Made by a program: the position numbers and the translations under genes
Notes under the pieces: model-generated
Databases searched by the model: none
The model's input: the letters and a program-made list of their open reading frames with translations, nothing else
What the model was told of the DNA's origin: nothing
Virus record (IMG/VR): IMGVR_UViG_2541047682_000007
Length of the DNA: 11,224 nucleotides
Direction: 5' to 3' (one strand)
Source of the DNA: a virus
Lineage: Duplodnaviria > Heunggongvirae > Uroviricota > Caudoviricetes
Shown here: one piece after another, positions 256 to 11,224 of the stretch
How positions within the stretch are numbered: the stretch's first letter is position 1
Layout: every line of letters starts with the position of its first letter

Positions 256-3201
256 TTAGTGCTTCCCTTCTATTAAGTCTAACCTAGCTTTTATTCTTTC
301 TATTTCTCTGCGCTGCCATGCTGCCTCGATATAGAATAAGAGATCAGGTCTGACCCCCCATCTAGATCCTGCTGGCGTTATTTCAACGCGCTCAATGATG
401 TCTTCCATTACCATCACTGGATTATCATCCTCATCAACAATGATGCTCCCGTCATTATCAGTCAGCGGCATTTCCCTTTGGCCAGTAATGACGTCATCAT
501 ATACTGCGGGATAATCGTCATAGCAAAGAAAGGCATAGCGGCATGTTGTGCTTTCTTCTTCCATGAGTCCGTGAGAAATAAGAACATCACGAAGTTGCTG
601 CGCGATTACACCATGATGTATCCTCGCCCCTTCTTCCCCCTTTATAGCGACAGCGTTCAGCCATTTATAAGCGATATACCTGACGTCACCCCAGGCATCC
701 AGCAATGTTTCGTCAGGAGAGACCGGCTCTGTCTTTAATGTTCCGTCACTGGTAACCACAGGATTGGAGCCAAGATAAACTATCGAGAACCTGTTTCCCG
801 GACCACCAAGAGCATTTACATTATCAAGATAAGGTTTAACATCTCCGTTCTCAAAAAGATGTTCGAGTGCGTTATATACCGCGCGACGTGGAGTACTGCT
901 TCTGGAACCATGCAACGTTATCATTGCACCATCTGCTGAAGACGTTGTTTCACCGCCGCTAACGATTAATCTCTGAGCGGTAACATCATCAGACGGTACT
1001 TTCTTCGCAATAATGGCGTAATTACCCTCAAGTTTGACTTCCGCGCGAACTTGTCCTGATGTACCTGCATGGACAGTCAGTGACTGGACGGCAACATCAT
1101 CTGTGAAATCAACGGGTACAGGAACCGTCCTCACGCCTGACGTCGACATAAAAGTAGGAAGCGTTCTGTTAGGAGTGGCTCCGTAGACAAAATCCCTTGA
1201 AACAAATTCTTCCTGTTTAATTTTCACCCTGAAACAATACAAATCAGCCGGGTGACCATCGTGAACATAAGGATATTTTCTGTTGTTATCCCCTATGCTC
1301 CATGGGTTTAGAAAGTCTTCCCCACCGAAAATGTAGTACAGCCAGTTGTCTTTGATACAAACTGAACCAACACCAACCGCAGAGTTAACTATTCCGCCCT
1401 GATAAATCTGATCAGTAACATTAACCCACTCTACATTATCCAGACTCCACTCATTGACGTTAACTCTGGTCATAAATGTTCTTGGATAGTTTCCTGCATA
1501 ACGGTTATCAGGTTCTCCTCCTTCCCACTCACCAAATGCGCGCTCACTGCCAAAAATAATCAGCTCATCGCCAACTTTGGCAAAAGGAAGGTTTGAGTGA
1601 TGAACATTATTTGGGAAGCGAAGAGAATTCCATGATGTACCTAAATCAGAGCTTCTGTGCAATGAACTACCGGGTTGAGTACTTAATGTCCCCCTGGTCG
1701 TCAGATACAGAATGCCATCATAATATTTTACACATGGCTCAGATGCATTCGCCTCATATTCTGCAGGTATGCGTCTGCGAACAAAGCTACCAGGAGAACC
1801 GAAAGCATCAGAGAAATAGAGTATCCCAAGCTCGCGTGGACCAATATCACCATTATGGTAGCCAACAGCAAAACTGTTATCGCTAATCGTCGCAAAACTG
1901 TGAATCTCAGTAACAGGAGTGCTTCCGTCAACAAAAGAAGGAATAGTTCCAAGACTGGTTTTTCTCCATGGTGACGAGTGAAATGATGTACCAAAACTCC
2001 AGTATCTACCCTCGTTATTCTGATCCACATCCTGGGTATTTTGCGTCGTAACTGTAAAAGTATTTTTATCAATAACAGTAGTCACCGTCATATTCCCGGT
2101 AACACCTGTAACACCAGAGTTTGAGAAGTTGACAAAATCACCAGCAAATAATCCGTGATCAGTAATGCGAATATAAGCGACTTGCTGATTTGCTGCTTTC
2201 GTTATACCACCATAAACGCGAAGGCTGCGACTCATTGGGCGATCCCACAACTCTGCAACCTGCAGTTTATTTCCGCTCACGGTCCGCGTCTCAATTACAG
2301 CAAAAAGGCGATTTCTGACAACCCCCATACTCATGCAGTGATAGTTAACTGTGGGATAGTTTTCATGTAAATCTGTAAGCCATTCCGGCGTTGTCCAGGT
2401 CTTCCCGTCATCTCCTGAGCGAACCCATGCAACATGGAGGTTATTTACACCATGGCGGTCTCCAGCCATAAAAGGCGCATAGATGACATTGTCATATACA
2501 AACGTTTTATCCTGCGTCCAGGCGTTGTACCACGGTGTATCTGTAATTTTAAATAACTCTCCCTGGATAAAATCTTCAGAAACATAAAAAAGAGGCTGAC
2601 CCGGTATTCTCTCAAATAAAAAACGAGCATTTTTAAATCGACTGACATCTGGAAGAGTTGATACTTTAAAAGTAAGCCCTCGCCCATCTATCTTTTCACC
2701 ACCTGTTGCAACAGAAAGTAATTCTGATAGAGCTGATGTATCATCATGAACACCATCACCAATAGCCCCCCAACCTCTTACATCATAACTGTCTCTCCAT
2801 CTTGCTATCTGAAGTTTTGGGTATTTATTCGCTCCATCTGGGTCTTCTAATTGCTGCCGTAGTTGATCAGGATCATACTTCAGCACATTCTGGAAATAGA
2901 ACTGCTGTACGCCATACGCATCGTACACAGCCATAGAATGGCCTTGCACAGTTACGAACTTGGCAATCCGTCCGTTATATACAGGGTAACCAGCAGCGTT
3001 AATGATGATTGGTTGCGAAACAGGAACGTGAGAGCCGTCTTCGTTCTCTACATAAACCTGAATCCGGTTTTCAGGATTTACCGGGTCAGTGTCAATTTTA
3101 CCGATATAAATTTTGCCATTGGCTACGGCTTTAAAAGAACGCGCCATAGTGAAGAGTTGCGAAGGCATCGATACAATCACATTGGCTGTAATGTCTGTCA
3201 T
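256..3201 (-). CDS. Tailspike protein: P22-type head-binding N-terminal domain fused to an endo-N-acetylneuraminidase (endosialidase) domain with a C-terminal intramolecular chaperone (S74-type) domain
   Basis: 981-aa ORF. N-terminus [13 protein letters not shown]...[21 protein letters not shown]...[15 protein letters not shown]...LKYDPDQ closely parallels the P22 gp9 head-binding domain as I remember it. Central region carries sialidase Asp-box motifs ([16 protein letters not shown]). The C-terminal ~150 aa resemble the auto-cleaving chaperone domain of K1-phage endosialidases. RBS GGAG 8-9 nt upstream of ATG at 3201. Confidence 0.9.
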
Positions 3202-3259
3202 TTAATTTGCTCCAGATGCAAAGAATCGCCGCAGCATGGCCACGGTGAATTTTGGGCAT

Positions 3260-3282
3260 AAAAAAACCCAGCCGAAGCTGGG
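3260..3282 (-). terminator. Rho-independent terminator between ant and the tailspike gene
   Basis: On the minus strand: stem CCCAGC, loop TTCG, stem GCTGGG, followed by TTTTTTT (plus-strand 3267-3282 cccagccgaagctggg preceded by an A-run). Confidence 0.6.
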
Positions 3283-3301
3283 TCGTTGCGTTGGTTATCT
3301 G

Positions 3302-4204
3302 TCAGTAATTATGTACTGAAGGAGGTAATTCTTTATTCTTAAGTCTCATCCATGCGGAAAGATTCGTTGGTCCGTCTGGCTCATTGATATCAACATCTCG
3401 TGTGTGATTGATTAAAACGTCTCTCGCCATATCGATAATACGGGAGAACTCATAACCGCAGTCATGACATCTGCCGGAATAGTTCGATTGAATTTGTTTT
3501 AGCGCCGGATACAGTTCGCGGAATAATGCCTGTGAGCGGTTGGCATAATCCCATAGCCATACAAGGCTGTTTGCTTCTTTTGCAGAAAGCTCGTTGGTTT
3601 TCTTCTCTTGTTTGCCGATGAACTCACCTTCAAGCACTACCCTGTGGATGTACTCTACTGCTTGTGGTATCTGAGATGCATCAAGCTCTTCAATACTTTC
3701 CACATTGAAACGCTGATGAATCATTGCATAAGCTTCTGGGTACATTAGATGCTTTTTGCTGACTAGCATATTTACAGCATCACGAAGCGGAGTCCTGTCA
3801 TCAACAGATGTTTTCTTCCGTGCATTTGCTGCCTCTCCCTTTGTCCAGTAGTCATGCAGCACAGTAAAGCATTCTTCCTGGTACTGAATCAGTTTATCGC
3901 GGATGTCAGCACGAACTTTCTCAGGGTTGATGCTGAACAGCCATCCATTTAACTTCTTCAAAGGAAGGCAGAGTAGCTTACGAAGCTTACCATCAGCGGC
4001 AACCATGTTCATATGAACACAGTTGAATTTGCTAATCTGCTTCATGAGTTTTGTTTGCTGCGTTGACCAGCTCATTCCGAGGTTTTCAACGATTGGCTTC
4101 ATCGCAACATATGCAACTCCGGCAGCCATGGCGGTGATAATTTGCTGACCGTTGAATGGCACGTAAGAGGTGTTCACTGCTTCTAAAATTGCTATACTAT
4201 TCAT
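3302..4204 (-). CDS. ant: Antirepressor Ant (P22 immI-type, 300 aa)
   Basis: ORF-track ORF 3302..4270 contains an internal ATG at 4204 preceded by GGAG with a 10-nt spacer. From that start the product is 300 aa, the length I recall for P22 Ant, beginning [21 protein letters not shown]. The longer 322-aa reading begins with GTG at 4270 and lacks a good RBS. Position between arc and the tailspike matches P22 immI. Confidence 0.8.
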
Positions 4205-4285
4205 GTTGGTTTTTCTCCACGGATTTACCGACAACCGAAGCCCTGACTGTTCCAGCAGTTGGGGCTTCACTGTTTTGATTTCTTT
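4205..4285 (+). ncRNA. Candidate Sar-like antisense RNA opposite the ant ribosome-binding site and start
   Basis: Plus-strand extended -10 element TGcTATACT (4190-4198) would put a start near 4205, directly opposite the ant start codon. Plus-strand hairpin GAAGCCC..ACTG-ttccag-CAGT..GGGCTTC (4237-4268) is followed by a T-rich tract ACTGTTTTGATTTCTTT (4269-4285). This is analogous to the P22 sar RNA. Inference only. Confidence 0.3.
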
Positions 4286-4703: not shown

Positions 4704-4952
4704 ATGGCAAAGGGTGTGTCAATTTCTCCAACTACGGTAAGAATCCCTGAATCTTTACGCGAGGCTCTTGCTGTCAGAGCATCAAAAAATGGTCGCTCTG
4801 TTAACTCCGAGATCGTCATGATTTTGCAAGCCGCGATTGATGAAGATAGGTCGCCAAAGTCAGTTGAGTCATTTGCTCAGCAAGAAGCTGATAAATTCAA
4901 AGAGGCGCTACTTGAGACGCTAAAGACCATGTATGCTAAGGATGAAAAATAA
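4704..4952 (+). CDS. mnt: Mnt repressor (ribbon-helix-helix, 82 aa)
   Basis: ATG at 4704 with AAGGTG 4 nt upstream. Product MAKGVSISPTTVRIPESLREALAVRASKNGRSVNSEI...ALLETLKTMYAKDEK parallels P22 Mnt (82-83 aa; ANGRSMNSE...TLKDLYKK). The track ORF is 5'-extended by an implausible upstream start. Confidence 0.85.
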   Translation: MAKGVSISPTTVRIPESLREALAVRASKNGRSVNSEIVMILQAAIDEDRSPKSVESFAQQEADKFKEALLETLKTMYAKDEK

Positions 4953-5488
4953 TGCTGCACACAATTCATTTCTTATGCCCTGTTAACACTGCCACTGTTG
5001 GGCAACTTCAGAACCACTGTCTCACCGCATTATCTCAAGGCGCAACTGAATTAAATATCCATATATCAAGTCAGGGAGGGGAAACTGCTGCTGGCTTTAC
5101 TGCGTATAACTTTCTTAAGTCACTCCCTGTTACCGTTAGAACTCACAACATAAGCAATGTTGAATCCATAGCTAATATCGTTTTCCTGGCTGGCTCAGAA
5201 CGTTTCGCAAACCCATTATCAAGATTCCTGTTACATCCTCTATTATGGTGCTTTGCCTCCCCAGCCGCCGACCATGCCAGATTGAGAGAGTACGGGAAAT
5301 GCCTCGATAACGATCTTGATCGCTTCGTTGAGACGTTCAATATCGACATCGGAACCCATATTAGGTGGGCATCCCTGATAGCAGACTCGACCATTTTGGA
5401 TGCTAACAAGGCTCTTGAGCATGGCATAATTAATTCCATAAAAACTGCAAGGCTGGCATCCAATCAGGCAAACTGGTGGGTTGTTTGA
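4952..5488 (+). CDS. ClpP-like (peptidase S14 / ClpP-crotonase fold) serine peptidase homolog, 178 aa, translationally coupled to mnt
   Basis: Start ATG overlaps the mnt stop (TAATG at 4950-4954). By-eye alignment to E. coli ClpP: ISSQGG vs INSPGG; NVESIANIVFLAG vs GQAASMGAFLLTAG (catalytic Ser aligned); RFANPLSRFLLHP vs RFCLPNSRVMIHQP (catalytic His aligned); LDNDLDRF vs ERDTERDRF (catalytic Asp aligned). Followed by a terminator hairpin. Confidence 0.7.
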   Translation: MLHTIHFLCPVNTATVGQLQNHCLTALSQGATELNIHISSQGGETAAGFTAYNFLKSLPVTVRTHNISNVESIANIVFLAGSERFANPLSRFLLHPLLWCFASPAADHARLREYGKCLDNDLDRFVETFNIDIGTHIRWASLIADSTILDANKALEHGIINSIKTARLASNQANWWVV

Positions 5489-5538: not shown

Positions 5539-5767
5539 AGTCAAACATAGTGTTTCTAAAGTCTCTCGCATACCCTGCTAACACTCTCATTCTATTATGA
5601 TTGTTAGCAGACATGTGAGCTACAGGATGAAAAAGAGCAATCAATGAATACCTGTTCTCATCAAAAAGATTTTGTGCATAAACGAGAGCGGTATTTGAAG
5701 TGGTTTACTGAATTTGGCCACCTGAACAGAGGTGATATGCTCACCTCAGAACAACACAGGTGCCATA

Positions 5768-6915
<1,148 letters not shown>

Positions 6916-7112
6916 CTCGGTGGCCAGTTTTTGTTGACCACTTCAATGCAACAGTTCGCTATTGCAGGGGCGGCATCGGTTCGCCCTTTCAACCCGATTT
7001 TATCGGTACAGCATTCACGAAAAAACATTTTAACCGGAGCAGACTTTAAACAACCAAGAATGAAAAGCTTGCTCGAAAAGCTTTGGGATATTTTGAAACA
7101 ACAAGGCCGTCC

Positions 7113-7271
7113 ATGAGTTTTACGGATAACTGGTCAGACGAAGAATTCATTCGTCAGATAAAAGAATTAATCGGTAACGAAGGAGATATTCATGTCACTT
7201 GCAACCACAGTGAAGGAGAGCAAGTTACAGAGACGCATGTACACGCAGAAAGCTCTCTGGTATCGCCATAA
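7113..7271 (+). CDS. Hypothetical small protein (52 aa) in the early-left operon upstream of erf
   Basis: ATG at 7113 with AAGG about 7 nt upstream; acidic product MSFTDNWSDEEFIRQIKELIGNEGD.... Overlaps an alternative 56-codon ORF (7192..7362) in another frame, so both cannot be fully correct. Confidence 0.3.
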   Translation: MSFTDNWSDEEFIRQIKELIGNEGDIHVTCNHSEGEQVTETHVHAESSLVSP

Positions 7272-7362
7272 TGGTGACCGCGAAGGAATGCGGGTATGCC
7301 TTAATTTGTCCCGAGTCGAAGTATTAAATCAGCGTTATTTCCTTGGGCCGTGTCCATTCTGA
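7192..7362 (+). CDS. Hypothetical small basic protein (56 aa) immediately upstream of erf (position of arf/kil in P22)
   Basis: ATG at 7192 preceded by AGGAG with a 6-nt spacer. Product MSLATTVKESKLQRRMYTQKALWYRHNGDREGMRVCLNLSRVEVLNQRYFLGPCPF. Stop is 10 nt before the erf start. Below the ORF-track length cutoff, found by manual translation. Confidence 0.3.
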   Translation: MSLATTVKESKLQRRMYTQKALWYRHNGDREGMRVCLNLSRVEVLNQRYFLGPCPF

Positions 7363-7372
7363 GAGCAATCAT

Positions 7373-7978
7373 ATGAGCAAAGAATTTTACGCAAGACTGG
7401 CAGCTATTCAGGAGAATCTGAACGCGCCAAAGAATCAGTACAACTCATTCGGCAAATATAAATACAGAAGCTGCGAAGATATTCTTGAAGGCGTTAAGCC
7501 GTTACTGAACGGTCTGTTTTTATCAATCAGCGATGAAGTTGTGTTGATTGGTGATCGGTATTACGTGAAAGCCACGGCAACTATTACCGATGGCGAAAAC
7601 AGTCATACGGCAACCGCTCTTGCACGAGAGGAAGAAAGCAAGAAAGGAATGGATTCTGCACAAGTTACGGGAGCTACAAGCTCTTATGCACGCAAGTATT
7701 GCCTCAATGGTTTGTTCGGCATTGATGATGCGAAAGATGCAGATACAGACGAGCATAAACATCAGCAGAACGCAGCAGCAAAGCAATCAAAACCATCACT
7801 TACACCTGAACAGGTTCTAAAAGCATTCACTGACGCAGCAATGCAGAAAAACACCGTAGAAGAGCTTAAACAGGCGTTCGCCAAAGCGTGGAAGATGCTC
7901 GAAGGGACGCCGGAGCAGCACAAAGCGCAGGACGTTTACAACATCAGACGAGACGAATTAGAAGGGGCAACTGCTTAA
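7373..7978 (+). CDS. erf: Erf (essential recombination function) single-strand annealing recombinase
   Basis: Product from ATG 7373: MSKEFYARLAAIQENLNAPKNQYNSFGKYKYRSCEDILEGVKPLLNGLFLSISDEVVLIGDRYYVKATATITDGENSH... is near-identical in its N-terminal ~130 aa to my recollection of P22 Erf. The track ORF is extended upstream from a TTG. Confidence 0.9.
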   Translation: MSKEFYARLAAIQENLNAPKNQYNSFGKYKYRSCEDILEGVKPLLNGLFLSISDEVVLIGDRYYVKATATITDGENSHTATALAREEESKKGMDSAQVTGATSSYARKYCLNGLFGIDDAKDADTDEHKHQQNAAAKQSKPSLTPEQVLKAFTDAAMQKNTVEELKQAFAKAWKMLEGTPEQHKAQDVYNIRRDELEGATA

Positions 7979-8361
7979 TGGCACATTCGATTACAGTAAG
8001 ACTAAACAAACCCGCAAGAGAGTTTCAGGGCGGGGAAAATATCGGATTCAACATCCGTGCTGGCGTTCAGTATTACGATCGCCAGACAAAAAAGAAAGAA
8101 TGGACAAACTACAGCGCCGTTGTATTTGCCAAGCCGGGAGCGCAAGCGGATTACTATCGTAGCGTTCTGGTTGAAGGAGGCATTGTAGAAATTACCGGAG
8201 AAAACATCAGGGTTGATGTTTATCAGGGGCAAAATGGTCAATCAATCACTCTTGAATTACTGAATGCAAAGATTGGATTTGCAACTTCAGGAAACAGCCA
8301 ACAGCAGCAAAGTAGCAATCATCAAAATAATCCTGAATACGACGATTCCATCCCATTCTGA
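7978..8361 (+). CDS. ssb: Phage single-stranded DNA-binding protein (short SSB, 127 aa)
   Basis: ATG overlaps the erf stop (TAATG at 7976-7980). OB-fold-like core (KEWTNYSAVVFAKPGAQADYYRSVLVEGGIVEITGE, compare E. coli SSB [33 protein letters not shown]). Gln-rich linker and canonical acidic C-terminal tail ...PEYDDSIPF (E. coli SSB ends DFDDDIPF). Confidence 0.85.
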   Translation: MAHSITVRLNKPAREFQGGENIGFNIRAGVQYYDRQTKKKEWTNYSAVVFAKPGAQADYYRSVLVEGGIVEITGENIRVDVYQGQNGQSITLELLNAKIGFATSGNSQQQQSSNHQNNPEYDDSIPF

Positions 8362-8384
8362 TTTAGAAAAATAAGGATTTAATT

Positions 8385-8681
8385 ATGCCAGCGCCTTTGT
8401 ATGGTGCGGATGACCCGCGCCGCTGTTCCGGCAATTCCGTATCGGAGGTGCTGGATAAATTCAGAAAAAACTACGATCGAATAATGTCTCTACCGCAGGA
8501 AACGAAAGAGGAAAAGGAATTTCGCCACTGTATATGGCTTGCAGAGAAAGAAGAACGCGAGCGAATTTACCAGACATCAATCCGACCATTCCGCAAAGCC
8601 ACATATACCCACTTCCCTGAATATATCGACCCGCGCCTGCGTAATTACCGCTCACGCTATGGCGCTATCAGTAATGACTGA
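8385..8681 (+). CDS. Hypothetical protein (98 aa), Ea-region
   Basis: ATG at 8385 with AAGGA 7 nt upstream. Same strand and operon context as erf-ssb. No recognisable motif. Confidence 0.55.
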   Translation: MPAPLYGADDPRRCSGNSVSEVLDKFRKNYDRIMSLPQETKEEKEFRHCIWLAEKEERERIYQTSIRPFRKATYTHFPEYIDPRLRNYRSRYGAISND

Positions 8682-8775
8682 GGAATTTACCATGAGAGGA
8701 CTTGCTTAAGAGAAAGAGTTTCGGTTCTGTTAATGACAACAAATATCTGAATGCGATGTGGCGGAGTGGGAAGAA

Positions 8776-9294
8776 ATGAAACAAATGTCACTAATTGAGA
8801 TGGATGGTTTTCTGAAAGGTAAATGCATCCCAAGTGATTTAAAGGTTAACGAAACAAACGCTGAATACCTTGTCCGTAAGTTCGGTGAACTTGAATCAAA
8901 ACTGGAAACGGCGTTGCGGGAGTGTAGTTCTGCTGGAATCACGATTGATAACCTTGAGGCTAAATGCGCGAAGATGGCTGCTGAAAATACCTCACTTAAG
9001 CAATCTGAGAAGGAATTTAATGACTTTTGTCGTGAGGAGTTTAGCGAATGGGAAGATGATGTTACTGAAACCCCAGCCACCGATGCTTTTCTGGCTGAAG
9101 TGCGGGCGCAGGGGGTGGATGCTGCTATAGAAGCTGCAAAAAATCTGGTGGCCCAAGAATATGAGTATAAGGATTTCAAAGCGGCGCAGAGTGATTGCTG
9201 TATGCACCCTGGTTCAGACCTGGTAGGGAAGGTTGAAATGACTGAGTGGTTAGTTGACTTTGCTGCCCAGCTTCGCAAAGGAGGCAACCAGTGA
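8776..9294 (+). CDS. Ead/Ea22-like acidic protein (about 172 aa; start uncertain, GTG 8758 or ATG 8776)
   Basis: Long acidic ORF in the Ea region, with GGAG 9 nt upstream of ATG 8776. The family assignment is from general resemblance to lambdoid Ea22-type proteins and is tentative. Confidence 0.55.
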   Translation: MKQMSLIEMDGFLKGKCIPSDLKVNETNAEYLVRKFGELESKLETALRECSSAGITIDNLEAKCAKMAAENTSLKQSEKEFNDFCREEFSEWEDDVTETPATDAFLAEVRAQGVDAAIEAAKNLVAQEYEYKDFKAAQSDCCMHPGSDLVGKVEMTEWLVDFAAQLRKGGNQ

Positions 9295-9590
9295 CTGTAT
9301 GTCTTATTGATAAACGTCGACGTGGGCAACAAATACCATCTGTTGAAATGCCGAATCACACATGGTTTTGCGTACTTGATATCGATGGTATGGATACGTT
9401 GGTTGACACTCGTCATTACTGCGATACCGCAACAGCTACTCCGGCGAAAGCAAAGAAAATGGCTGCTCTGATAGAAAACTGGACTCCACCTGATGGTTGG
9501 TGCAATGGGAATGATCGAGATTGGCACGAAAAAATGAAGGGCTATATCTGCGATTTTTTACGTAAATGCAACGGCTTCAGGGGGATGTGA
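9291..9590 (+). CDS. Hypothetical Cys-containing protein (99 aa), GTG start overlapping upstream stop (GTGA)
   Basis: Strong RBS AAAGGAGG 6 nt upstream of GTG 9291. Start overlaps the stop of the preceding ORF, suggesting translational coupling. Confidence 0.5.
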   Translation: MTVCLIDKRRRGQQIPSVEMPNHTWFCVLDIDGMDTLVDTRHYCDTATATPAKAKKMAALIENWTPPDGWCNGNDRDWHEKMKGYICDFLRKCNGFRGM

Positions 9591-9591
9591 T

Positions 9592-10164
9592 ATGACCAAA
9601 ATTAACTATCAGGCACTGCGTGAGGCGGCAGAACGTGCAATTCCGGCAATGGAACGCCTGTTAATGTTGCCAGTTGATGATGATTTGTTAAGTGAACAGG
9701 AACTTAAGGATTACGGTGTGGATATTGATGCGCTCAACGCCTTCAAATTTCTGACCGGACCAGAAACCGTGCTGGCGCTGCTGGATGAACGGGAAAGAAA
9801 CCAGCAATACATCAAACGCCGCGACCAGGAGAACGAGGAAATTGCGCTAACGGTAGGGAAGCTGCGCGTTGAGCTGGAAGCTGCAGAGAAGCGCATTGCA
9901 GAACTGGAAGCCGAACCTGTAAGCCAAACTTACAAGTTGAACGAGCTGTCGGGCAACTATCCGGTAACTCCGGATGGTTGGATAAGCTGTAGTGAGCGAA
10001 TGCCCGCTCAAGATGATTGGATTTTAATTTATTCAAAGCACGGCGAGTATATGGCAGGACAGGTACAAGGGGAATACGTGGAGTTGAGCGACGGCACTTT
10101 ATCGTGGTTAGGGAACGCCTTGTACTGGATGCCTCTACCGGAACCGCCGCAGGAGGTTAATTGA
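9592..10164 (+). CDS. DUF551-type / Ea22-like prophage protein (190 aa) with central coiled-coil
   Basis: N-terminal MTKINYQALREAAERA... and C-terminal TPDGWISCSERMPAQDDWILIY...LYWMPLPEPP resemble the DUF551 C-terminal domain common in lambdoid early-left regions. Coiled-coil segment KLRVELEAAEKRIAELEAE. ATG 2 nt after the upstream stop. Confidence 0.7.
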   Translation: MTKINYQALREAAERAIPAMERLLMLPVDDDLLSEQELKDYGVDIDALNAFKFLTGPETVLALLDERERNQQYIKRRDQENEEIALTVGKLRVELEAAEKRIAELEAEPVSQTYKLNELSGNYPVTPDGWISCSERMPAQDDWILIYSKHGEYMAGQVQGEYVELSDGTLSWLGNALYWMPLPEPPQEVN

Positions 10165-10358
10165 TGGTCTCCTTCGCGAAATATACGATTATTGACTGGA
10201 TAGCATTCATTCAGGTTTTGCTCATCTGGTTTTATATGGCTTACAGGAGTGGACAGTGGATTGTCAGTGTAGCCTGTAGCAATGGATGGCGTTGGTGGAA
10301 CCGAAAGAATAAAAAAAGCGCTGGCCTTGGCTTCGTTTTACGAAGCATTCAATCTTAA
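10164..10358 (+). CDS. Small hydrophobic (predicted membrane) protein, 64 aa
   Basis: ATG at 10164 overlaps the upstream stop (TGATG) and is preceded by AGGAGG with a 7-nt spacer. Hydrophobic helix IIDWIAFIQVLLIWFYMAY followed by a basic W/R/K-rich tail. Confidence 0.45.
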   Translation: MVSFAKYTIIDWIAFIQVLLIWFYMAYRSGQWIVSVACSNGWRWWNRKNKKSAGLGFVLRSIQS

Positions 10359-10441
10359 CAGTCTTCAGCCTGGTTCTGTCGTTGTAGTCACCACTCAAAG
10401 CGGCATGACGATACAAATTCACAAGCCAAAGGAGGAAGGTC

Positions 10442-10726
10442 GTGGCTAACCTGCAACTTGCCGTTAAAGGTGAATACTTCGATGCCATGATTCGCGGAGA
10501 GAAAACGGAAGAGTATCGCCTGTGTAATGACTACTGGAATAAGCGAATTATGTTCCGCGAGTATGACCGCCTGATTATCACAAAGGGATATCCGAAGCGC
10601 GACGATTCCAGCCGCAGAATTGACGTCCCGTATGACGGATATGAAATCAAGACAATCACACATCCGCACTTCGGCGATAAACCGGTAAAGGTGTTCGCTA
10701 TAAAGGTGAATATCGACAATGAATGA
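10442..10726 (+). CDS. ASCH/PUA-like domain protein (94 aa), GTG start
   Basis: GTG at 10442 preceded by AAGGAGGAAGG. Motif ...GEKTEEYR... resembles the ASCH-domain signature (GxKTxExR) seen in small phage proteins. Assignment is tentative. Confidence 0.55.
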   Translation: MANLQLAVKGEYFDAMIRGEKTEEYRLCNDYWNKRIMFREYDRLIITKGYPKRDDSSRRIDVPYDGYEIKTITHPHFGDKPVKVFAIKVNIDNE

Positions 10727-10798
10727 TAATCCTCGCACTCGCGGGGATTTCTTTTATCTGAACTCGCTACGGCGGGTTTTGTTTTATGGAGATGATAA

Positions 10799-10966
10799 AT
10801 GCACTTCCGAGTCACAGGTGAATGGAATGGAGAGCCATTCAACAGAGTTATCGAAGCAGAGAACATCAACGACTGCTATGACCACTGGATGCTGTGGGCG
10901 CAGATAGCACATGCAGACGTAACTAATATTCGAATTGAAGAACTGAAAGAACACCAAGCCGCCTGA
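10799..10966 (+). CDS. Hypothetical small protein (55 aa)
   Basis: ATG at 10799 with GGAG 7 nt upstream. Product MHFRVTGEWNGEPFNRVIEAENINDCYDHWMLWAQIAHADVTNIRIEELKEHQAA. Stop codon lies in the loop of a terminator hairpin. Below the ORF-track cutoff. Preferred over the overlapping track ORF 10719..10907. Confidence 0.4.
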   Translation: MHFRVTGEWNGEPFNRVIEAENINDCYDHWMLWAQIAHADVTNIRIEELKEHQAA

Positions 10967-10978
10967 TGGCGGTTTTTT
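10956..10978 (+). terminator. Rho-independent terminator at the end of the Ea gene cluster
   Basis: CCGCC-tgat-GGCGG stem-loop (10959-10972) followed by TTTTTTATT. Confidence 0.6.
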
Positions 10979-11023
10979 ATTGCCTGATTTGCAGGTTCGA
11001 TTCCCTATTCGGAGATAGCACTC

Positions 11024-11224
11024 ATGCAACACGAACTACAACCTGATTCACTGGTTGATTTGAAATTCATCATGGCCGATACTGGCTTCGGTAAAACCTT
11101 CATCTATGACCGGATTAAGTCCGGCGACCTGCCAAAAGCCAAAGTTATCCACGGGCGAGCAAGATGGTTATATCGTGACCATTGTGAATTCAAAAATAAG
11201 CTCTTAAGCCGCGCCAATGGGTAA
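11024..11224 (+). CDS. xis: Excisionase / AlpA-family DNA-binding protein (Xis), 66 aa
   Basis: GGAG 9 nt upstream of ATG 11024. Product carries an AlpA/Xis-like pattern (FIMADTGFGKTFIYDRIKSGDLPKAKVIHGRARWLYRD..., compare the typical ...TGLSRSTIYRLIKEGKFPKP...GRSVRW...). Lies at the distal end of the early-left operon, where xis precedes int in P22-like prophages. Confidence 0.65.
   Translation: MQHELQPDSLVDLKFIMADTGFGKTFIYDRIKSGDLPKAKVIHGRARWLYRDHCEFKNKLLSRANG

Follow-up and report, generated by a model that had tools for sequence, protein, structure and literature searches.

Early-left accessory genes, one of them frameshifted, in a probably promoter-orphaned remnant of a CUS-3-like Escherichia coli prophage

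Results

Gene content of the accessory block

The DNA considered here, referred to as the window throughout, is the whole 11,224-nucleotide stretch of the tailed-phage record IMGVR_UViG_2541047682_000007 (IMG/VR; Caudoviricetes), and our subject is a string of plus-strand open reading frames (ORFs) lying between positions 8385 and 10966. Read across the window, the gene order is endosialidase tailspike (minus strand), ant, arc/mnt, a ClpP-like gene, the insertion sequence (IS) ISEc52, an ORF of the kil region, erf, an ssb-like gene, the 8385-10966 block and torI. The block, flanked by erf/ssb on one side and an excisionase gene on the other, is the early-left accessory block (the 'ea' region of P22, the 'exo-xis' region of lambda) of a lambdoid, P22-family prophage, and this position bears out the early-left assignment made in a first-pass annotation from the sequence alone. 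Positions 8385-10980 differ by a single base from CUS-3, a prophage of E. coli K1 (CP000711, 37589-40183), and this 2.6-kb region has matches in more than 100 complete E. coli genomes, among them those of APEC O1, S88 and the type strain ATCC 11775. The features on which the argument turns are as follows.

5695-6946, plus strand: ISEc52 (IS3 family), bounded by inverted repeats of 28 nt (5695-5722 and 6919-6946); also named by RefSeq
8385-8681, plus strand: abc2, anti-RecBCD protein 2, 98 aa (Pfam PF11043, PHROG 656, P22 Abc2 structures)
8696-8779, plus strand: DUF2737 gene remnant, 5' half deleted (RefSeq annotation, alignment to HK106 and HF4s)
8776-9294, plus strand: ORF2, EaE/HkaH-like protein, 172 aa (PHROG 614, E=9e-66)
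9291-9590, plus strand: ORF3, DUF7739 protein, 99 aa (Pfam PF24881, E=1e-21; PHROG 1239, E=3e-55)
9592-10164, plus strand: ORF4, Ea22-type protein, 190 aa, with an Ead_Ea22 N-terminus and coiled coil and a DUF551 C-terminal domain (Pfam)
10164-10449, plus strand: DUF4752 gene (PF15944), frameshifted, N-half in frame 0 at 10164-10358 and C-half in frame +1 at 10282-10449
10311-10317, plus strand: A7 homopolymer, site of a 1-nt insertion (ancestral A6, from sequence comparison)
10442-10726, plus strand: ASCH-fold protein, 94 aa (motif and predicted fold)
10728-10749 and 10760-10779, plus strand: two tandem terminator-like hairpins with U-tracts (pattern scan, folding energy)
10799-10966, plus strand: ORF7, homologue of lambda hypothetical protein p35 (orf55), 55 aa (PHROG 676, lambda match)
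10956-10981 (stem 10956-10975), plus strand: predicted intrinsic terminator overlapping the ORF7 stop codon, with an 8-bp GC-rich stem, a 4-nt loop and a U-run
10989-11004, plus strand: 16-nt relic of the tRNA-Arg (argW) T-arm, TTGCAGGTTCGATTCC, identical to part of argW and labelled 'attR core' in the CUS-3 record
11024-11224, plus strand: torI, excisionase (recombination directionality factor) of the KplE1/CUS-3/HK620/Sf6 recombination module (RefSeq name, PHROG 66)

All seven plus-strand ORFs listed by the first-pass annotation are present (8385-8681, 8758/8776-9294, 9291-9590, 9592-10164, 10161/10164-10358, 10442-10726 and 10799-10966), and the three junctions that it quoted are correct, comprising a 4-nt overlap at GTGA (9291-9294), a 1-nt gap at TGAtATG (9588-9594) and a 1-nt overlap at TGATG (10162-10166). 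The ribosome-binding sites, described as strong, are so at 9291, 10164 and 10442 (Shine-Dalgarno pairing of about -11.5 kcal/mol) and at 9592 (-9.4), but only moderate (-6 to -7) at 8385, 8776 and 10799. Likewise, the picture of seven coupled genes stands as to their number; one of them is broken, however, a further gene survives as a deleted remnant, and terminator-like hairpins interrupt the string from within.

Natural variants in 70-odd related loci, scored as variable sites at codon positions 1/2/3, provide a measure of coding in each frame. The counts are 4/6/17 for abc2, 11/4/40 for ORF2, 15/13/41 for the ASCH gene, 3/4/13 for the C-half of DUF4752 read in the +1 frame and 1/1/13 for torI, and this third-position excess backs most of the plus-strand frames as real genes; the bias is weak or absent in ORF3 (4/5/6) and ORF7 (11/5/15), where there is too little variation to judge. 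Three minus-strand ORFs, at 8730-9527 (265 aa), 10388-10738 (116 aa) and 10531-10869, were considered and rejected as shadows of the sense genes: their variation falls on codon position 1 (10388-10738) or merely on the wobble position of the sense gene, and for the first two composition agrees with a shadow origin. The CUS-3 record annotates 10388-10738 as a gene, and RefSeq annotates none of the three.

Profile searches did not assign all of these ORFs to housekeeping functions, and most of them have no demonstrated function. A search of NCBIfam matched no family to any ORF, and searches of PDB sequences with ORF2, ORF3, ORF4, ORF7, intact DUF4752 and the ASCH protein returned nothing meaningful.

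A deletion next to ISEc52 has removed pL and N

The right end of ISEc52 abuts sequence equivalent to position 7562 of the APEC O1 locus, downstream of cI/N, and the kil-region ORF adjoins it. Intact relatives hold approximately 21.5 kb between the IS position and the kil region (a size derived from the coordinates of NZ_OZ547099), comprising the head, lysis, nin, replication and immunity (cI) genes, N and pL. Other genomes carry the same IS with the same left junction in a prophage that is intact, which makes an IS-adjacent deletion likely. Whereas the block stands downstream of cI/N in CUS-3 and APEC O1, the pL/nutL/N segment is missing from the window and the block no longer occupies that operon position; because the ISEc52-linked deletion took pL, N and cI, the block has been left without its native promoter. 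A scan for sigma-70-like promoters over 6900-11224 returned none, against 6.3 expected by chance, and an interval free of such sites fits a block that is read from an upstream promoter.

With pL and N gone, two genes broken and nothing promoter-like in sight, the block appears to be a passenger in a decaying prophage, most likely silent or else weakly expressed by read-through. A host-takeover role, one of the functions that the first-pass annotation associated with such regions, is doubtful here given the loss of pL and N through the IS-linked deletion; none of the eight proteins searched matched a PADLOC-DB defence model at E<=0.01. At a probability of roughly 85%, we conclude that the block represents the promoter-distal portion of an early-left (pL) operon, that it belongs to a CUS-3-like prophage of the P22 family integrated at E. 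coli argW, and that it is now promoter-orphaned in a decaying remnant.

The IS transposase gene spans two frames: a classic IS3-family slippery heptamer, A_AAA_AAG, lies in the orfA frame at 6019-6025 with orfB in the -1 frame, and RefSeq labels the gene 'frameshifted'. This shift is the normal programmed -1 frameshift, in contrast to the A7 run in DUF4752.

A single-nucleotide insertion splits DUF4752

The 64-aa hydrophobic ORF at 10164-10358, initially proposed as an independent small membrane protein, turns out to be the N-terminal fragment that a 1-nt insertion leaves of a DUF4752 protein of 94 aa. Its residues 8-54 align with PF15944 positions 2-47, and residues 10-52 of the overlapping +1-frame ORF align with positions 42-84, whereas the A6 version in CUS-3 covers positions 2-84 in a single piece (E=3e-34). 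In the family alignment the two fragments tile the 94-aa protein and diverge directly after NRKNKK. The window accordingly holds no single ORF of ~92-94 aa with the whole domain; the ATG at 10282 that opens the +1-frame ORF has no Shine-Dalgarno sequence, and RefSeq labels the locus 'DUF4752 family protein, frameshifted'.

The longer tract was found at 7 loci examined, all on the window's own haplotype (0-1 single-nucleotide polymorphisms), whereas A6 is present in 66 loci that include A7's own haplotype and 60 others, up to 7% divergent. In the exact 70/71-mer context, 112 complete E. coli genomes have A6 and 30 have A7, and the corresponding counts among IMG/VR contigs are 63 and 5. Carriers of A7 include the early reference genomes APEC O1 (NC_008563) and S88 (NC_011742) alongside 28 other complete genomes, and the tract is therefore not a platform artefact. 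All full-length members of the DUF4752 family are encoded in one frame, and the split-frame arrangement is not conserved in diverged homologues. Since A7 is confined to one haplotype, comparison of these sequences indicates that the change from A6 to A7 arose once, on the haplotype of the window, as a derived inactivating mutation and not as a programmed shift or conserved recoding signal.

Independent 1-nt indels break DUF4752 elsewhere, as 10233delT in three of the related loci (numbered L035, L059 and L061) and as an insertion after the equivalent of window position 10345 in a fourth (L048). Many truncated DUF4752 proteins of 52-74 aa are present in the protein database, and the gene seems to decay often.

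The hydrophobicity that drew attention to the 64-aa ORF is genuine, but it is a property of DUF4752. One transmembrane (TM) helix is predicted at residues 8-26 by hydropathy only (Kyte-Doolittle 19-residue mean 1.82), in a hydrophobic stretch that is conserved across the family; it is followed by a stretch rich in Trp, Arg and Lys and then by the most conserved part of the protein, LAxDxFYEAFNL...PG...VTT.SG.TI.I. An AlphaFold2 model (mean predicted local distance difference test, pLDDT, of 63) is confident only for a long N-terminal helix, residues 9-48, and poor for the C-terminal domain. The truncated A7 product thus keeps the predicted TM helix and the basic juxtamembrane stretch and loses the most conserved C-terminal 43 residues, while the last 13 residues of the 64-aa ORF are an out-of-frame translation without conservation. 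Literature searches for DUF4752 found no paper.

DUF4752 lies beside Ea22- and DUF551-type genes

The gene immediately upstream, ORF4, matches PF13935 (Ead_Ea22) over residues 3-104 (E=1e-29, 104.3 bits) and PF04448 (DUF551) over residues 129-187 (E=6e-11); it is 54% identical to lambda Ea22 over lambda residues 1-81, with no similarity past residue 104. It is an uninterrupted frame of 190 codons with a good ribosome-binding site, the Ead_Ea22 match and a complete DUF551 domain. For the same DNA, RefSeq (PGAP) gives two entries, a pseudogene labelled 'ead/Ea22-like, incomplete' and a distinct hypothetical protein of 54 aa. In both lambda and Phi24B, Ea22 promotes lysogeny (PMC7093339), the exo-xis region has described effects (PMC7093339, PMC3824215), and the DUF551 protein encoded by yfdS of CPS-53 has a reported role in oxidative-stress tolerance (PMC10834534, PMC4776307).

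In 65 of 69 close loci, the gene abutting the DUF4752 start ends in a DUF551 domain. As these loci were chosen by DNA pattern they are not independent samples, and the remote cases weigh more: four of seven remote DUF4752 homologues stand beside Ea22/DUF551 genes. An Enterobacter homologue (66% identical) shows the order Ead_Ea22, DUF551, DUF4752 within the nin region; a 32% homologue has DUF551 directly downstream; a 25% homologue has DUF551 upstream and NinB adjacent; and a 30% homologue is placed after an Ead_Ea22 gene. The other three have no recognisable neighbour. The Enterobacter cassette and that of locus L086 sit in the nin region, between the replication genes and ninB, and not in the pL operon. 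The remote loci in which DUF4752 has DUF551 or Ead_Ea22 neighbours are these.

L077-L080 (Enterobacter prophages), 3007-4285
L082, 1210-1873
L086, 2248-2779
L088, 1803-2803

An obligatory pairing with the downstream gene was also considered, given that the DUF4752 stop and the ASCH start overlap by 8 nt. It was rejected: ASCH follows DUF4752 in no more than 41 of the 73 loci, and the gene that adjoins the Enterobacter homologue is unrelated (112 aa).

Abc2 and the genes that follow it

The first ORF of the string is the well-studied anti-RecBCD protein Abc2. Its residues 1-98 match PF11043 over profile positions 1-97 (E=4e-62, 206.8 bits against a cut-off of 25), and it aligns over its full length with P22 Abc2 as solved by cryo-EM in complex with RecBCD (PDB 8b1t/8b1u, chain 8b1t_A; E=1e-56) with Pro68 present. 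The gene comes directly after erf (7373-7978) and the ssb-like gene, an order shared with P22 and HK106; abc1 was not recognised beside it. P22 Abc2 binds RecC and modifies RecBCD, and is thought to hijack RecBCD so that Erf is loaded (PMC9836394). From the near-identical, full-length match, we infer that the window protein would likewise bind RecC and modify RecBCD.

The 94-nt gap between abc2 and ORF2 is occupied by a decayed DUF2737 gene, which RefSeq describes as 'DUF2737 family protein, incomplete, missing N-terminus'. By comparison with HK106 and HF4s, approximately 77 nt including the start are absent, between short repeated ends (window 8694-8708 aligns twice); the intact gene in HK106 is 165 nt long. 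ORF2, named hkaH in the CUS-3 annotation, has a 5' part in common with HF4s 'EaE' and HK106 gp33 and no Pfam or PDB match. Its ATG at 8776 has a Shine-Dalgarno sequence and the GTG at 8758 has none. BLASTP detected no relationship between ORF2 and ORF4, although the two share PHROG matches. ORF3, likewise with no PDB match, begins at a GTG with a strong Shine-Dalgarno sequence that overlaps the ORF2 stop by 4 nt.

An ASCH-fold protein and a lambda-like terminal cassette

The first-pass call of an ASCH/PUA-like protein at 10442-10726 is borne out by motif and predicted fold. Within its GxKxxExR motif, G19, K21, E24 and R26 are invariant in 44 homologues, and GxKxxExR is the ASCH signature, placed between helix 1 and strand 2 (PMC6803910). 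The AlphaFold2 model (pLDDT 83) shows a small ASCH-type beta-barrel in which a helix separates strand 1 from strand 2, and its best fold matches are ASCH proteins. By sequence, the Pfam ASCH family (PF04266) scores 14.3 bits, below the gathering score of 21.2 and aligned only over residues 6-28, and a hidden Markov model of the family, run against PDB sequences, found no ASCH chain. As a model-based assignment the ASCH fold is reasonably supported, and the protein presumably acts on a nucleic acid or nucleotide, by binding or processing it. YqfB, the E. coli ac4C amidohydrolase, has Thr at the place of Glu24, and for that reason its chemistry cannot be assumed here. Among the papers that literature searches on ASCH and phage anti-defence returned, none reported such a role.

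The slot that this gene occupies is empty in some other loci, and HK106 has other genes between DUF4752 and the p35 homologue. There (L006, 3884-4684), a small ORF is followed by a 266-aa 'queuine tRNA-ribosyltransferase' gene, which we take to be putatively DpdA-like; the DpdA family is linked to 7-deazaguanine DNA modification.

Two hairpins separate the ASCH gene from ORF7, and the gene string is not seamless at this point. Their folding energies are -13.7 kcal/mol (z=-5.5) for 10728-10749 and -11.0 kcal/mol (z=-3.4) for 10760-10779; in loci without the ASCH gene, they come directly after DUF4752. ORF7 itself is 98% identical to lambda p35 (NC_001416, 29118-29285), homologues of which occur in 86 phage records and always beside xis where examined. 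The clean terminator reported at the end of the string is upheld: 10956-10981 is a predicted intrinsic terminator by its GC-rich hairpin and U-run (fold of -13 kcal/mol, z=-3.1), a rho-independent terminator is annotated at the homologous spot in HK140, and the element is conserved in lambda. The 259 bp at 10728-10986 that hold the two hairpins, the p35 gene and the terminator are 96.5% identical to lambda 29098-29356, and the homology begins exactly at the first hairpin and stops just past the terminator. This stretch resembles a discrete cassette, open to exchange and delimited by hairpins.

torI and a tRNA relic mistaken for attR

The KplE1-type recombination module is conserved in CUS-3, HK620, Sf6 and the APEC O1 prophage, and in it attP parts xis from int (PMC2951348). 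The 16-mer TTGCAGGTTCGATTCC that precedes torI in the window also precedes xis in the packaged genome of phage HF4s, whereas the adjoining argW 3' end, CTGCAGGGGACACCA, has its place between xis and int in HF4s and follows torI in lysogens. The corresponding positions in two other loci are as follows.

L005: 5400 and 5709
L004: 14763 and 15072

In the phage, the final 31 nt of argW are present in two parts, with torI between them. This arrangement marks the 16-mer as a tRNA relic carried by the phage and predicts that the true attR is to be found outside the window, past its end. The 'attR core' of the CUS-3 record, being upstream of torI when CTGCAGGGGACACCA follows torI in lysogens, seems misplaced, and the record seems to cut off its own excisionase.

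Other observations in the window

Elsewhere in the window, the plus strand at 4205-4271 matches the Rfam family of sar (83.9 bits against a gathering score of 43), the antisense RNA known from the immI region of P22. The match overlaps ant at its 5' end, and sar is the sole real RNA family in the window. Over 8300-11224, Rfam gave nothing above noise, the only match, to RsmY, scoring 19.7 bits where the cut-off is 57, and a tRNA gene scan of the window found none. The immI region also contains, beside arc/mnt, a gene for an 'ATP-dependent Clp protease proteolytic subunit' (4952-5488, plus strand), where CUS-3 carries different genes.

Discussion

In an intact phage, the block would be expressed on one delayed-early transcript running from pL through kil, erf, ssb and abc2 into the block, and over three hairpins to torI. 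Antitermination by N would carry RNA polymerase past the internal hairpins, and overlapping stop and start codons would couple translation from gene to gene, although the ASCH gene need not depend on the coupling that has been lost, as it has its own strong ribosome-binding site. Abc2 would bind RecC and redirect RecBCD, letting recombination by the adjacent Erf proceed, and the Ea22-type protein and its neighbours could act as non-essential modulators of the lysis/lysogeny decision and of host physiology, after the exo-xis genes of lambda and Phi24B.

Full-length DUF4752 could still be made if A7 were bypassed, either through +1 slippage of tRNA-Lys on A-AAA-AAA-A or through transcriptional slippage, or if A6 and A7 were states of a phase-variable switch. 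A +1 shift on the run would restore the exact family sequence (...NRKNKKALAL...), both tract lengths circulate on otherwise identical DNA (112 versus 30 genomes), and CUS-3 is known to carry a phase-variable gene, its annotated neuO repeat. The split form is nevertheless found on a single haplotype while 66 loci up to 7% divergent keep A6, which is not how a conserved recoding signal behaves; the 0-frame codon past the run is the common AGC, neither a stop nor rare, no stimulatory element is seen, and seven A's are short for efficient slippage or phase variation. Together with the independent indels in DUF4752 of other prophages (10233delT and the L048 insertion), which fit plain decay, these points make a bypass quite improbable. 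That the extra A is a sequencing or assembly error in a gene that is intact in reality is scarcely credible: homopolymer runs are error-prone on some sequencing platforms, but A7 recurs in 30 independently assembled complete genomes, APEC O1 and S88 among them, and in five IMG/VR contigs. Highly improbable, too, is the initial view of seven intact coupled genes with a genuine 64-aa membrane protein and an ASCH protein as a candidate for anti-defence or exclusion. The ORFs, overlaps and strong ribosome-binding sites do exist, the 64-aa product retains the predicted TM helix, and accessory regions of this kind do hold counter-defence genes, Abc2 being one. Against this, the 64-aa ORF is the N-half of DUF4752 with 13 final residues that are out of frame and unconserved, the 64-aa form is not conserved as such in diverged phages, PADLOC gave no match, and our literature searches brought up no report of an anti-defence role for ASCH, DUF4752, DUF7739 or DUF551.

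A different possibility is that the block has been domesticated: the IS, or a promoter that escaped recognition, would drive it, and it would be retained for the benefit that some of its genes bring to the host, as reported for yfdS of CPS-53. The remnant keeps intact ORFs for abc2, ORF2, ORF3, ORF4, ASCH and ORF7, the same remnant recurs, both in IMG/VR contigs and in several genomes, the transposase gene of the IS has the orientation of the block, and phenotypes of YfdS/DUF551 are on record (PMC10834534, PMC4776307). We nonetheless regard domestication as unlikely: 6900-11224 contains no promoter-like site, two block genes are already broken, and the block is identical in sequence to the copy in intact prophages, which leaves too little time for selection to have become visible. 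Several considerations do weigh against our own reading of a promoter-orphaned block in decay. Read-through from the co-oriented transposase gene, or promoters invisible to a simple scan, could drive the block. Five of the seven genes have no assigned function, and to call them modulators of lysis and lysogeny is an analogy to lambda and Phi24B. The TM helix of DUF4752 derives from a simple hydropathy score, AlphaFold confidence is low for the C-terminal domain, and homopolymer length can be mis-assembled, albeit that A7 is found in APEC O1, S88 and 28 others.

The block has already been sequenced and annotated in GenBank, and what is added here is minor, namely the linkage of DUF4752 to Ea22/DUF551 genes and the misplaced attR. 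Ea22, reportedly pro-lysogenic in lambda and Stx phages, has no known partner. A conserved and predicted membrane-anchored neighbour of Ea22/DUF551 genes, found in two operon positions, is therefore a partner candidate that would be cheap to test. A long shot built on this linkage is that DUF4752 serves as a single-pass membrane partner of Ea22/DUF551, the two genes forming a conserved, translationally coupled cassette that travels between pL and nin regions as a lysogeny-control or exclusion module; the A6/A7 tract would then switch the membrane partner off in K1 extraintestinal pathogenic E. coli, and the ASCH protein would be a counter-defence factor with a modified base or nucleotide as its target. 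The analysis also has corrective value: it keeps a frameshift fragment out of catalogues of new small membrane proteins, shows the loss of the native promoter from this copy of the block and flags a misplaced attR in a reference phage record.

Window Abc2 differs from P22 Abc2 by about ten substitutions, mostly in the C-terminal 25 residues, while Pro68, the residue targeted by PpiB, is kept and erf is adjacent in both. ORF4 has the N-terminal/coiled-coil module of lambda Ea22 in common with that protein, but a DUF551 domain in place of the lambda-type C-terminal domain, as in the Ea22_V2 variant of Stx phages (PMC10834534). The ASCH protein resembles those of Enterococcus faecalis (3iuw), PH0355 (2z0t), E. 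coli YqfB (9kyf) and ZmASCH (5guq) in predicted fold and in the placement of GxKxxExR, at an identity of just 12-23%.

At the level of the locus, CUS-3 (genes ECRS218_0056-0063), APEC O1, S88 and ATCC 11775 have the same sequence, genes and order, with torI and argW/dsdC adjacent as here. The CUS-3 record has A6 and an intact DUF4752 ORF of 95 codons, whereas the window, like APEC O1, has A7; unlike all four relatives, its prophage is additionally short of the ~21.5 kb lost in the ISEc52-linked deletion. Homologues of lambda orf60a, orf61, orf63, orf73 and ea8.5 are absent from the block, and xis (torI) and int are parted by attP, unlike in lambda. The lambda exo-xis and P22 ea regions nonetheless occupy the same place as the block does, between recombination genes (here erf/ssb/abc2) and the excisionase gene, and display the same mosaicism at gene boundaries.

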